From Centroscyllium fabricii (Eukaryota), in contig JBNRSN020000007.1 of the NCBI GenBank assembly GCA_051313645.2, forward strand, positions 74,462,001-74,526,000: DNA of 64,000 nt, given 5' to 3'. The first letter of the stretch is position 1, and each line of letters opens with the position of its first letter. This document shows, in pieces, positions 43,869 to 55,006 of this stretch. The translations under genes and the position numbers were made by a program. The notes beneath the pieces were generated by a model that saw only the letters and a list, made by a program, of their open reading frames with translations, did not search any database and was not told the origin of the DNA.

Positions 43869-44862
43869 TAGTGCATCAGGAAGTCTTGTTCTATTGATTT
43901 ATTGATCTATATTTTCTGAAATGTACACGAGGTAGTTCATTGTTCGAATGGATAGCTATTCCAGCGCCGCCATCAGTTGAGCAGGGATCCAAAAGATGGA
44001 TTTTTGGGACAGAGCATATTGTACAGACTGGATGCACTGGTAAGTCTGTTCTTCAAAGTGATTTCAGAGTCAAATTATTGCTAGGATAATTTGAGCCACT
44101 GAGGATAACACCAGCCCACTGGCAGATTACATTCAGATTGGCTATTTAACCCTTCCAGCAAGTGCTTCTCCCTGTGCCCTCTGTTGAAATCAAGACACTC
44201 TTCTTCCAGCAAATTTTTAGAAATTCTAAAATCCTAACGTGTCATCACCCATGCACTTTTTTTTTTTTTTTTTTTTTTTTAACCTGGTTGTCTTGGTCTT
44301 TTTAACATTGGTGGTATCCTGAACTATTGACATTGGCACTTCTGGCACTTCACCTGGGTTTCTTTTCTGCTGTCTGGTTGTGTAGATGAAGTGCTTAACC
44401 CATTTTCTGTGGGCCTCTATGTTTTGATAGTTTATAAAACTGAGTGTTCAAAGTCAACACAAGACCCTGCAGGTAGAAATGTTTCCATAATTCACATTGC
44501 ATGGATATGTCTGACTGCCTGTGGGGTAAATGAGACAGATGGCAGAATGTCTAGTCATTGAATATCATAAGAAGGGAGTACATTCTAATTGGGCTGATCC
44601 TCACTCTCAAGCAGGTAACGTCCCTAAACTGCAACTTAGCCAGTTTCTGGAGCATGTCGTCTTTGTGCATTTTCCTCATAGGTTTTTCTGTTCTGTATAA
44701 ACCCGGCAAATTCCACTCTTGTTTGCCAAGACCTATTAAATTAAATCCCATAATGCCTTGGTATAGATGGAAATTGCAGCGTGCAGTAGCAATATGCCAT
44801 GACTGGCAGTGTAATGTTTTGGATGACGGTCAAGAGCAGTTGGTGTGTCATAATCAGGACCA

Positions 44863-45319
44863 TAATGTGGAGGTGCCGGTGTTGGACTGGGGTGGACAAA
44901 TGCAAGAAGTCACACCACACCAGATTATAGTCCAACGGTTTTATTTTAAATCACAAGCTTTCAGAGCGCTGCTCCTTCGTCAAGGTGAAAGAGAGACTGA
45001 CTTAAAAGATCATGGTTTTTATATAATCATGGTTTTTATATTAATTTTTTTTTTTTTTTTTTTTTAAATCATTCTGTGGGATTTACAGCAGACTAACATT
45101 TGACCCTGTGACTGCACCCTTTTGATATGTTGGAAAGTCTTGGACTGCTTTGATGTCCCGCCTGACGTAGTCATCCGGACTAGGGACATTTTTGTCTTGG
45201 TAAGATGTGGAAGAGATCCGATTTCTCTGTCTCTAGGGTGAGATGTGGAAGAGATCGGATTTCTCTCCTCCTCCGATATCCACAATGAGATGTGGAAGGG
45301 ATCGGATTTCTCTTTCCCT

Positions 45320-45351
<32 letters not shown>

Positions 45352-45470
45352 ATATGTGATCTTTTAAGTCAGTCTCTCTCTTTCACCTTGACGAAGGAGC
45401 AGCGCTCCGAAAGCTTGTGATTTAAAATAAAACCGTTAGACTATAATCTGGTGTTGTGTGACTTCTTGCA
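44863..45470. mobile_element. Penelope-derived fold-back element with hammerhead motifs
   Basis: Inverted arms 44901-45012 and 45357-45470; 13-bp TSD ATAATCAGGACCA at 44850-44862 and 45471-45483. Confidence 0.8.
45383..45420 (+). ncRNA. Minimal hammerhead ribozyme-like motif (variant core)
   Basis: TCAC-C-TTGACGA-A-GGAGC-agc-GCTCC-GAAA-GC-TT-GTGA; mirror copy on the - strand at 44951-44988. Confidence 0.6.
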
Positions 45471-46762
45471 ATAATCAGGACCAGCAAGTCAAATTAGTAC
45501 GTAACAAAAAAGATCTTTCCTCTGCTATTTAAAACCTGTAGTATTCCTTTTTCTGACTATGTATAGTGTTCAGAGCTGGGTGGTGGTATTGGGCAAAGCT
45601 AAATAATTCCGTGCAATTACAAAATCTGGTCAGTGGTGTTTAGTTTATAATGCAGTGTTTAGTTTATAATGCAGTATCTGTATTGAGAGTGCTACTTTCA
45701 GATGTGTCATCCTTTGGGTGAGATACCAAGGGTCCTGCCTGTCTGTTCAGGTGGATGTCAAGATTCCATGATACGAGTCAAAGAAAAGCAGGAAATACTC
45801 TGGTTGCCTTGGCCAATGTTCCTTCGTCTCAGTACAATTTTTGGTGTATTACACTTGTGGAATGGCTGCCATATTTGCCGAAATAATTCATGCAGTCAAA
45901 GGGGTTCATTTCTTTGAACTGTTTCGAAACATTGCACTGATGTGGTAATGTGCTATGAAATCTCTTTTTCCCCTACTTTTGGCATGCATCATTTGAGTGG
46001 ACAATCAACCTGTTGCTAGACCTCTGCCATCATGTTTTCTTTTTAAACCTACTACTGGGAGATATGTGTGAACATTGAAACATTCCCGGTTTTTCCTTTT
46101 TCCTTATGAGCATCACCTGGCTTTTTTCCCCCGAGGGCATGAAAGGCACAATATATTATTTATTTTTATATATATATATATATATATAATTTATTTTTTT
46201 TATTTTTAAAAAAGGTTATAGCTCTCCATCTAAAATGCACAGGAACTTCATGGGCTGTGTACCTGGTGCTGATTTTTGCTGGGTTATAATTTTGTTGATG
46301 CTTGCAGCCCACATTCCTGTTAAGCTACGTAGCGGTCTGGAGGCCCTGCGCAGGCCACTCGCCAGCTTTACAATAGTATTAACCACACGTGTGGAAAAAT
46401 TGAATGGGCTGACCAGCCAGTTAAAGGGCCCGTGCATCATAAAATAAAATAATTACAGGAAACATTGCGCTCAGCCCTCCCGTACCTTGTCAAAGTAGCA
46501 AACATTATATGCAGTTCTATTTAGTAAACATCGGGGGGGATATCTTACCAGAAGCAACATCATGGCAGAGTTCAATCCTGTTGTCCTCTAAAGAATTGGG
46601 TTGAGGACTTTATAGTCCTTCTGGTTCAATTGCACATGGGAGCTATTAAATTAAGTTATTCAAATAAGGATAACAAACTTGTTTTTGATCGTCTAAATTT
46701 CTGCACGGACTTGAGATACATAAAGTTGCAATTTAAAAAAAAATCCACTTCTGTGCTTTTAG

Positions 46763-54702: not shown

Positions 54703-55006
54703 AGAATAACCGGAAACGCTGGAGAAACTCAGCAGGCCAGGCAGCATCGGTGGAGAGAGAAATGGAGTTAATGTTTCAGGTCAATGACCTTTCATCAGAA
54801 TTGGGGGAGGAAAAAGCAGGAAATGGAAAGCAAGTTTGGCCTCCCAACTTGCTTTCCATTTCCTGCTTCCCCCCCCCCCCCCCCAAGTTCTGACGAAAGG
54901 TCATTGACCTGAAACGTTAACTCGGTTTCTCTCTCCACTGATGCTGTCTGGCCTGCGGAGTTTTTCCAGCGTTTCCTGTTTTGGATTTGCAGCATTTTGC
55001 TATCGT
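54703..55006. mobile_element. Penelope-derived palindromic (fold-back) element with hammerhead motifs
   Basis: Arms 54712-54836 and 54846-54976 around a 9-nt loop; 12-bp TSD ATTACCTAATTA at 54691-54702 and 55007-55018; arm sequence matches the tail of the Penelope at 15055-15150. Confidence 0.85.
54883..54925 (+). ncRNA. Minimal type I hammerhead ribozyme motif
   Basis: CCAAGTT-CTGACGA-A-AGGTC-att-GACCT-GAAA-CG-TT-AACTCGG: intact CUGANGA/GAAA core, 5-bp stem II, palindromic ACGU stem III, 6/7-bp stem I. Confidence 0.72.

Follow-up and report, generated by a model that had tools for sequence, protein, structure and literature searches.

What kind of element is a 608-bp insert that lies in an intron of Centroscyllium fabricii and has two inverted arms, each with a hammerhead-like motif carrying one extra base in its core, and can such a core still cut? 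The insert occupies positions 44863-45470 of the window (the whole stretch of DNA analysed, 64,000 nucleotides of contig JBNRSN020000007.1) and is bounded by a 13-bp target-site duplication (TSD), ATAATCAGGACCA. The host gene (24594-57990, plus strand) is a member of the ERM family with moesin as its best match, and the insert sits between two of its exons, in an intron of the FERM-coding region; the exon downstream of the insert has moesin as its best match among solved structures (E 4e-41). The first-pass annotation had described the 608-bp insert with its 13-bp TSD (44850-45483), inverted arms of about 112 bp, an extra base in both arms and three spacer repeats beginning at about 45203, 45241 and 45288, all of which are borne out. 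It had also read the insert as a member of a distinct non-autonomous family; instead, what lies in the moesin-like intron is one end of a longer parent element, truncated on its 5' side and arranged head to head. Its features are as follows, the two TSDs and the inversion junction being read from the sequence.

44850-44862, no strand: left TSD, 13 bp, ATAATCAGGACCA
44863-44900, minus strand: PLE tail, 38 nt, on the left arm only
44901-45012, minus strand: pLTR arm, inverted and truncated on its 5' side, covering about -152 to -39 in family positions
44951-44988, minus strand: minimal hammerhead-like motif with a CUUGACGA core and one G-U pair in stem II from a C>T change
45009-45041, plus strand: inversion junction, where ATCA forms a microhomology and 17 nt of 3' UTR are duplicated (repeat D3)
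45025-45356, plus strand: fragment of the parental 3' UTR without the internal block (reference -452 to -283)
45203-45315, plus strand: three AGATGTGGAAG repeats (family D1), which derive from the 3' UTR that sub-lineages B-E have
45357-45470, plus strand: pLTR arm in sense orientation, its end being the one without a tail (about -39)
45383-45420, plus strand: minimal hammerhead-like motif, core CUUGACGA at 45387-45394, predicted cut after 45416
45471-45483, no strand: right TSD, 13 bp

The two arms (44901-45012 and 45357-45470) are 95.6% identical over 114 alignment columns, and both contain the motif UCAC-CUUGACGA-A-GGAGC-AGC-GCUCY-GAAA-GCUU-GUGA, with GCUCU in the left arm and GCUCC in the right one. 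The 38-nt tail (44863-44900), overlooked in the first-pass annotation, is found on the left arm and there is none on the right. On family positions, the window copy runs from -152 to 0 in antisense and then from -591 to -452 and from -283 to -39 in sense, and it carries no ORF. Its poly-T/poly-C runs (45043-45066 and 45327-45348) far exceed those of family relatives and represent either copy-specific expansions or assembly effects. The Rfam search (16 matches at E<=1) gave no match to a hammerhead model at the insert, and only sub-threshold miRNA-like hairpins at 54.8 kb. A second PLE-like fold-back is present in the window (54708-54980), having canonical CUGAYGA cores, the extra A, an AGGUC/GACCU stem II and an ACGU palindrome. 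The annotation had called these two elements unrelated in sequence and identical in architecture; the first part holds, as a poly-C run was the sole BLAST match between them within the window, while the second extends to the extra A but not to the palindrome, which is ACGU and not AGCU in the 54.7-kb element.

The genome (7.2 Gb) was searched with the left arm, giving 1,750 first-look candidates, 40 of them scored, and CUUGACGA was present in 30/30 fetched loci, a fraction biased by their having been picked by similarity. Longer copies extend upstream through the 3' UTR into an ORF, and the full-length unit has about 3.3 kb, with the same repeat flanking an 890-aa ORF on both sides and the start codon at the end of the 38-nt tail. 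These hammerhead-bearing repeats, about 3.3 kb apart, are partial-tandem pLTRs. The parent ORF has an RVT_1 match in Pfam (E 2.6e-9, above cutoff), and the protein of copy L114 contains DKG, YIDD, a C-x4-C-xx-C linker and a GIY-YIG-like C-terminus, the latter recognized by eye from VVYLI...WYIGET and the expected Cys/His pattern, with no GIY-YIG match in Pfam. The linker, CHSNLCKTC, is present in the proteins P0001-P0003, and a CX2-5CxxC linker between RT and EN is described as marking Neptune/Nematis elements (PMC8557442). The parent is an autonomous Penelope-like element (PLE), which this linker motif would place in the Neptune type. The Penelope origin that the annotation had proposed is thereby supported, and the autonomous Penelope with a matching pLTR for which it had called exists: there are full-length copies whose two pLTRs both carry CUUGA and whose 890-aa ORF is unbroken. 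The spacer, taken there as a sequence of the fold-back family, turned out to be, together with its three repeats, the 3' UTR of full-length elements; AGATGTGGAAG has three copies in sub-lineages B-E and a single one in sub-lineages A and F and in the outgroups. Among other full-length copies, a variant element at L043 (5356-7265) is split by a LINE-like insertion that runs antisense to it and contains an open stretch of 610 aa, and those at L122 (G000:C1108:171865-181864) and L111 (G000:C1422) lie near the ends of small contigs. C1108 has two ORF starts 3.2 kb apart, which suggests a tandem array and could be a source locus.

The parent resembles the EN+ PLEs described in PMC8557442, PMC3846280 and PMC11167929 in its ORF with an RT followed by a GIY-YIG-like segment, CX2-5CxxC linker, DKG and partial-tandem pLTRs, and also in its inverted truncated copies with an optional tail of 30-40 bp and a TSD of about 12 bp. 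The parent ORF starts at the tail end, 92 nt past the predicted cut, while that of PAc is reported to start at stem II (PMC11167929), and the extra U in the pLTR hammerhead core sets the parent apart from the other EN+ PLEs described in these sources.

The layout of the insert was compared with a set of 95 distinct head-to-head pairs, in loci chosen by pattern, 73 of which have a TSD of at least 9 bp. One tail end and one short end were found in 73/73 TSD-bounded pairs (TSD mode, 12 bp), and the 46 of them with a variant arm form inserts of about 0.2 to 6 kb. This asymmetry matches the two RT start sites reported to flank the PLE tail (PMC11167929), and the inverted-pLTR-plus-tail layout had been reported for EN+ PLEs (PMC3846280; PMC8557442), so the fold-back layout is ordinary and already known for this group. 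A distinct non-autonomous, MITE-like fold-back family with fixed arms and spacer, as first annotated, agrees with the TSD-bounded inverted arms and the missing ORF of the window copy and is nevertheless very improbable: every copy has its own arm lengths, inner junctions and size, the spacer is collinear with the parental 3' UTR, and in a BLAST map of loci L001-L062 the junction layout of the window copy was found in no other locus. In this sample it was rejected on the variable junctions, the size range and the asymmetric ends. A non-LTR retrozyme was also rejected. Like the retrozymes described in bioRxiv 10.64898/2026.07.22.740005, the insert is PLE-derived and non-coding and has type-I hammerhead motifs; unlike them, it has its two motifs on opposite strands, internal repeats without a hammerhead and no head-to-tail tandem monomers, and it is a one-off product of an autonomous parent.

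Some inserts unite arms of two subfamilies within one TSD. The core differs between the arms in 5/62 scorable pairs and stem II in 10/73, rates that are biased because the loci were picked by pattern; in L102 (G000:C1:173362224-173366754), the arms are identical at 205/268 positions inside one 12-bp TSD. Mixed-subfamily arms in a single TSD were also observed in L127, L145, L149, L150, L155, L160, L170, L247, L269 and L270. These inserts suggest that two RNAs can be used per integration event, which would also provide a route for pLTR mosaicism, although the cases that involve short patches might instead stem from later gene conversion. The arms of the window copy are therefore likely to be two separate cDNAs and not the result of a DNA duplication, and the earlier claim that the extra base predates the duplication of the arms stands in that the base is older than the insertion, but probably not as regards the duplication. 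At L220 (1412-1505, minus strand), the pLTR ends of two subfamilies occur in direct tandem, 93 nt apart, likely owing to a template switch between RNAs.

The extra U was followed genome-wide by exact motif matches, which count arms and not insertions and are lower bounds. The CUUGA motif with the GGAGC-AGC stem has 3,523 matches and that with a four-base loop, mostly with a GGGGC stem, has 921 (CACCTTGA being present in 98/100 of the first matches listed for the latter), against 22,917 + 24,586 + 38,929 = 86,432 canonical motifs. CUUGA thus makes up 4,444/90,876 (4.9%) and is outnumbered about 19 to 1. Reversed control motifs gave 0 matches genome-wide for every pattern, so the 3,523 matches are not due to chance, and the non-canonical core is a state of the lineage and not private to this copy, in line with the first annotation. 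As 617 canonical motifs have identical flanks and lack just the U, the comparison points to an origin by one-base slippage. About 95% of the counted motifs retain CUGANGA, and what variation there is falls in N7 and stem-loop II, a pattern that speaks for selection in most lineages to keep the core functional.

Thirty-one loci were scanned for full-length copies, 26 of them with coverage over 2,300 nt, and two without a scorable core were excluded. The variant core was found in 8/24 scored copies, at the 5' and 3' pLTR alike (8/8). Four of these eight (L107, L114, L134 and L142) have an unbroken 890-aa ORF, with YIND in place of YIDD in L107, and the ORF lesions among the eight have none in common. 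No variant-only ORF change was found in three or more copies, so the selection test has no power. In the tree of the ORF 3' end (53 rows), canonical outgroups branch first, followed by variant sub-lineage A and then by a young clade (95/92) where copies of both core types are interspersed (median tip 0.008; bootstrap not settled). The ORF tree suggests that canonical sub-lineage F is a reversion from a CUUGA ancestor; however, variant monophyly was not rejected in the AU test (p-AU 0.116) and UTRs are mosaic, so that this reversion and a single origin of the U are each no more than possible. The proteins P0003 and P0002 are 97% identical and ORF haplotypes occur across both core types, which, with the interspersed tree, weakens the case for independent long-term survival of a CUUGA lineage. 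Since UTRs and stem-II cassettes are also mosaic among sub-lineages, the U resembles an allele in a set of recombining subfamilies; occasional gains or losses of the U in a single arm were seen in L027, L250 and L256. The core of the variant L142 is also spanned, with a single mismatch and without gaps, by a contig of 167 nt (depth 3.5) that comes from a run filed under another organism code; this hints weakly that the CUUGA variant occurs beyond the C. fabricii assembly studied.

Regarding cleavage, most of the motif is retained in the variant. Stem I (UCAC/GUGA), the 5-bp stem II, the extra base 9a, G10.1-C11.1, GAAA and the palindromic helix III are all present, as in the minimal type-I PLE hammerheads described in PMC4209133, which share the unpaired base between A9 and 10.1, G10.1-C11.1, the palindromic 15.2-16.2, the short stem I and a predicted action as dimers. 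What is absent is the C3-U4-G5-A6-N7-G8-A9 core, with a contiguous CUGA in no register of CUUGACGA, and two readings can be made: the U is inserted in the turn, or the C is bulged with U3 facing G8, which is 2.5 kcal/mol worse. A full pairwise scan is reported to give low activity for single and double CUGA-turn mutants except the C3/G8 swap (PMC9901934), and a natural 2-nt insertion near C3 is described as 425-fold slower (4 M LiCl) and as barely cut at 15 mM Mg2+ (PMC3088659). By extrapolation from such data, as the published mutant scans covered substitutions or other insertions, the extra U quite probably impairs self-cleavage.

CUUGA could instead be a working natural variant in which the U loops out, or the C bulges with a U3-G8 wobble, perhaps aided by the protein of the element, a reading that is possible but unlikely. 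It would account for the retained stems I and II, GAAA, extra A and AGCU palindrome and for the nearly unchanged scaffold energy (-10.1 in the variant versus -10.8 kcal/mol in a canonical relative), as well as for the presence of the U on several pLTR backgrounds and two stem-II types. The halovirus hammerhead HHphage, with the core U2a-G2b-U3-U4-G5-A6-C7-G8-A9, offers a precedent of UUGACGA behind an insertion (PMC7151607); it maps no more than 3 nt away from the 5' end of a transcript and is possibly active in vivo (PMC3088659). The PAc hammerhead is reported to need protein for cleavage (PMC11167929). The same reading has to absorb the cost of the bulged register and the strong impairment known for an insertion near C3, and there is no fixed A8 compensation, only scattered CpG-type changes among the matches listed; the clade is also too young (ORF tips about 0.8%) for persistence to be proof of selection. 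A family-level U3-A8 variant (about 1,300 hits in Schistosoma) is described as compensated (PMC4209133), whereas CUUGA keeps G8 and adds a base. The variant is similar to HHmeta and HHphage in having an insertion next to C3, one CUUGA register matching U3-U4-G5-A6-C7-G8-A9 of HHphage (PMC3088659; PMC7151607); these, as described, have 2-nt insertions in few halophile viral sequences, while CUUGA has 1 nt in thousands of vertebrate retrotransposon copies, and HHmeta was measured and is slow (PMC3088659), while poor cleavage of the CUUGA core is a prediction. Whether or not CUUGACGA can cut, the window copy itself is likely inert: it lacks an ORF, and the predicted folds of both strands pair its core bases completely with the opposite arm (probability 1.0).

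Here it is proposed, as a reasonably probable reading, that cis hammerhead cleavage is not needed for copying of the RNA and that the extra U likely cripples it. The U would likely stem from slippage by one base in a relative with the canonical CUGACGA and would then have spread through several recombining sub-lineages, the protein coming from the intact ORF of the variant or from near-identical canonical sisters. The RT/GIY-YIG protein would cut the two strands of the target at sites about 13 nt from each other and prime two cDNAs, the first from the tail end and the second from about 38 nt further in; both would end early, and a short microhomology would serve to join them head to head. RT would start 55-90 nt downstream of the cut site and would have to traverse it, so an uncut 3' ribozyme may cost nothing at this step and may even be required for copying. 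PAc insertion in vitro is reported as unchanged by hammerhead mutants (PMC11167929). The 5' ends of arms fall within 2 nt of the predicted cut in 3/437 cases, with no peak; since these loci had been selected for an intact core, the result carries no information on cleavage.

Given the near-identical sister ORFs and the mixed-arm inserts, help in trans to CUUGA RNAs is possible. A reading in which cleavage matters and the variant is dead as an enzyme, its RNA either serving as substrate in a heterodimer with a canonical RNA or being moved by the protein of a canonical sister, is rather unlikely; its narrower form, in which CUUGA elements are substrate-only cheaters cut in trans by canonical sister RNAs in dimeric hammerheads met in two-RNA integration complexes, is similarly unlikely. 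Minimal hammerheads are reported to act as dimers (PMC4209133), the substrate half of the variant is intact, and the drawn dimers have -20.7 kcal/mol in all pairings, so that a heterodimer scaffold is no less stable than a homodimer one, although this drawing lies above the lowest-energy cofold (-27.5). The excess of canonical motifs and the mixed arms in one TSD, L102 included, would also fit, the latter with the caveats given above on pattern-chosen loci and gene conversion. Against this reading, no ORF decay is seen to be inherited among full-length variant copies, though the time has been short. Cleavage might then release the 92-nt leader for translation, as hammerhead cleavage in the UTR of a fungal virus is reported to aid cap-independent translation (PMC13725137).

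A PLE family whose core has an extra U without compensation was not found described in open-access main texts. The hammerhead in Penelope pLTRs is widely conserved and weak in vitro, and it is described as not needed for insertion in one in vitro system, PAc (PMC11167929). The elements reported here form a natural matched pair: near-identical and full-length, they differ by one U in the catalytic turn, and both have recently been amplified by the thousands. If the cheater reading were true, this would be a case of natural trans-complementation of a ribozyme between transposon subfamilies. If the variant cuts, the natural hammerhead core is broader than the canonical one and CUGANGA searches overlook about 5% of such motifs. 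If it is dead, the genome would provide evidence that cis cleavage is unneeded for the copying of these elements, or that it is supplied in trans.
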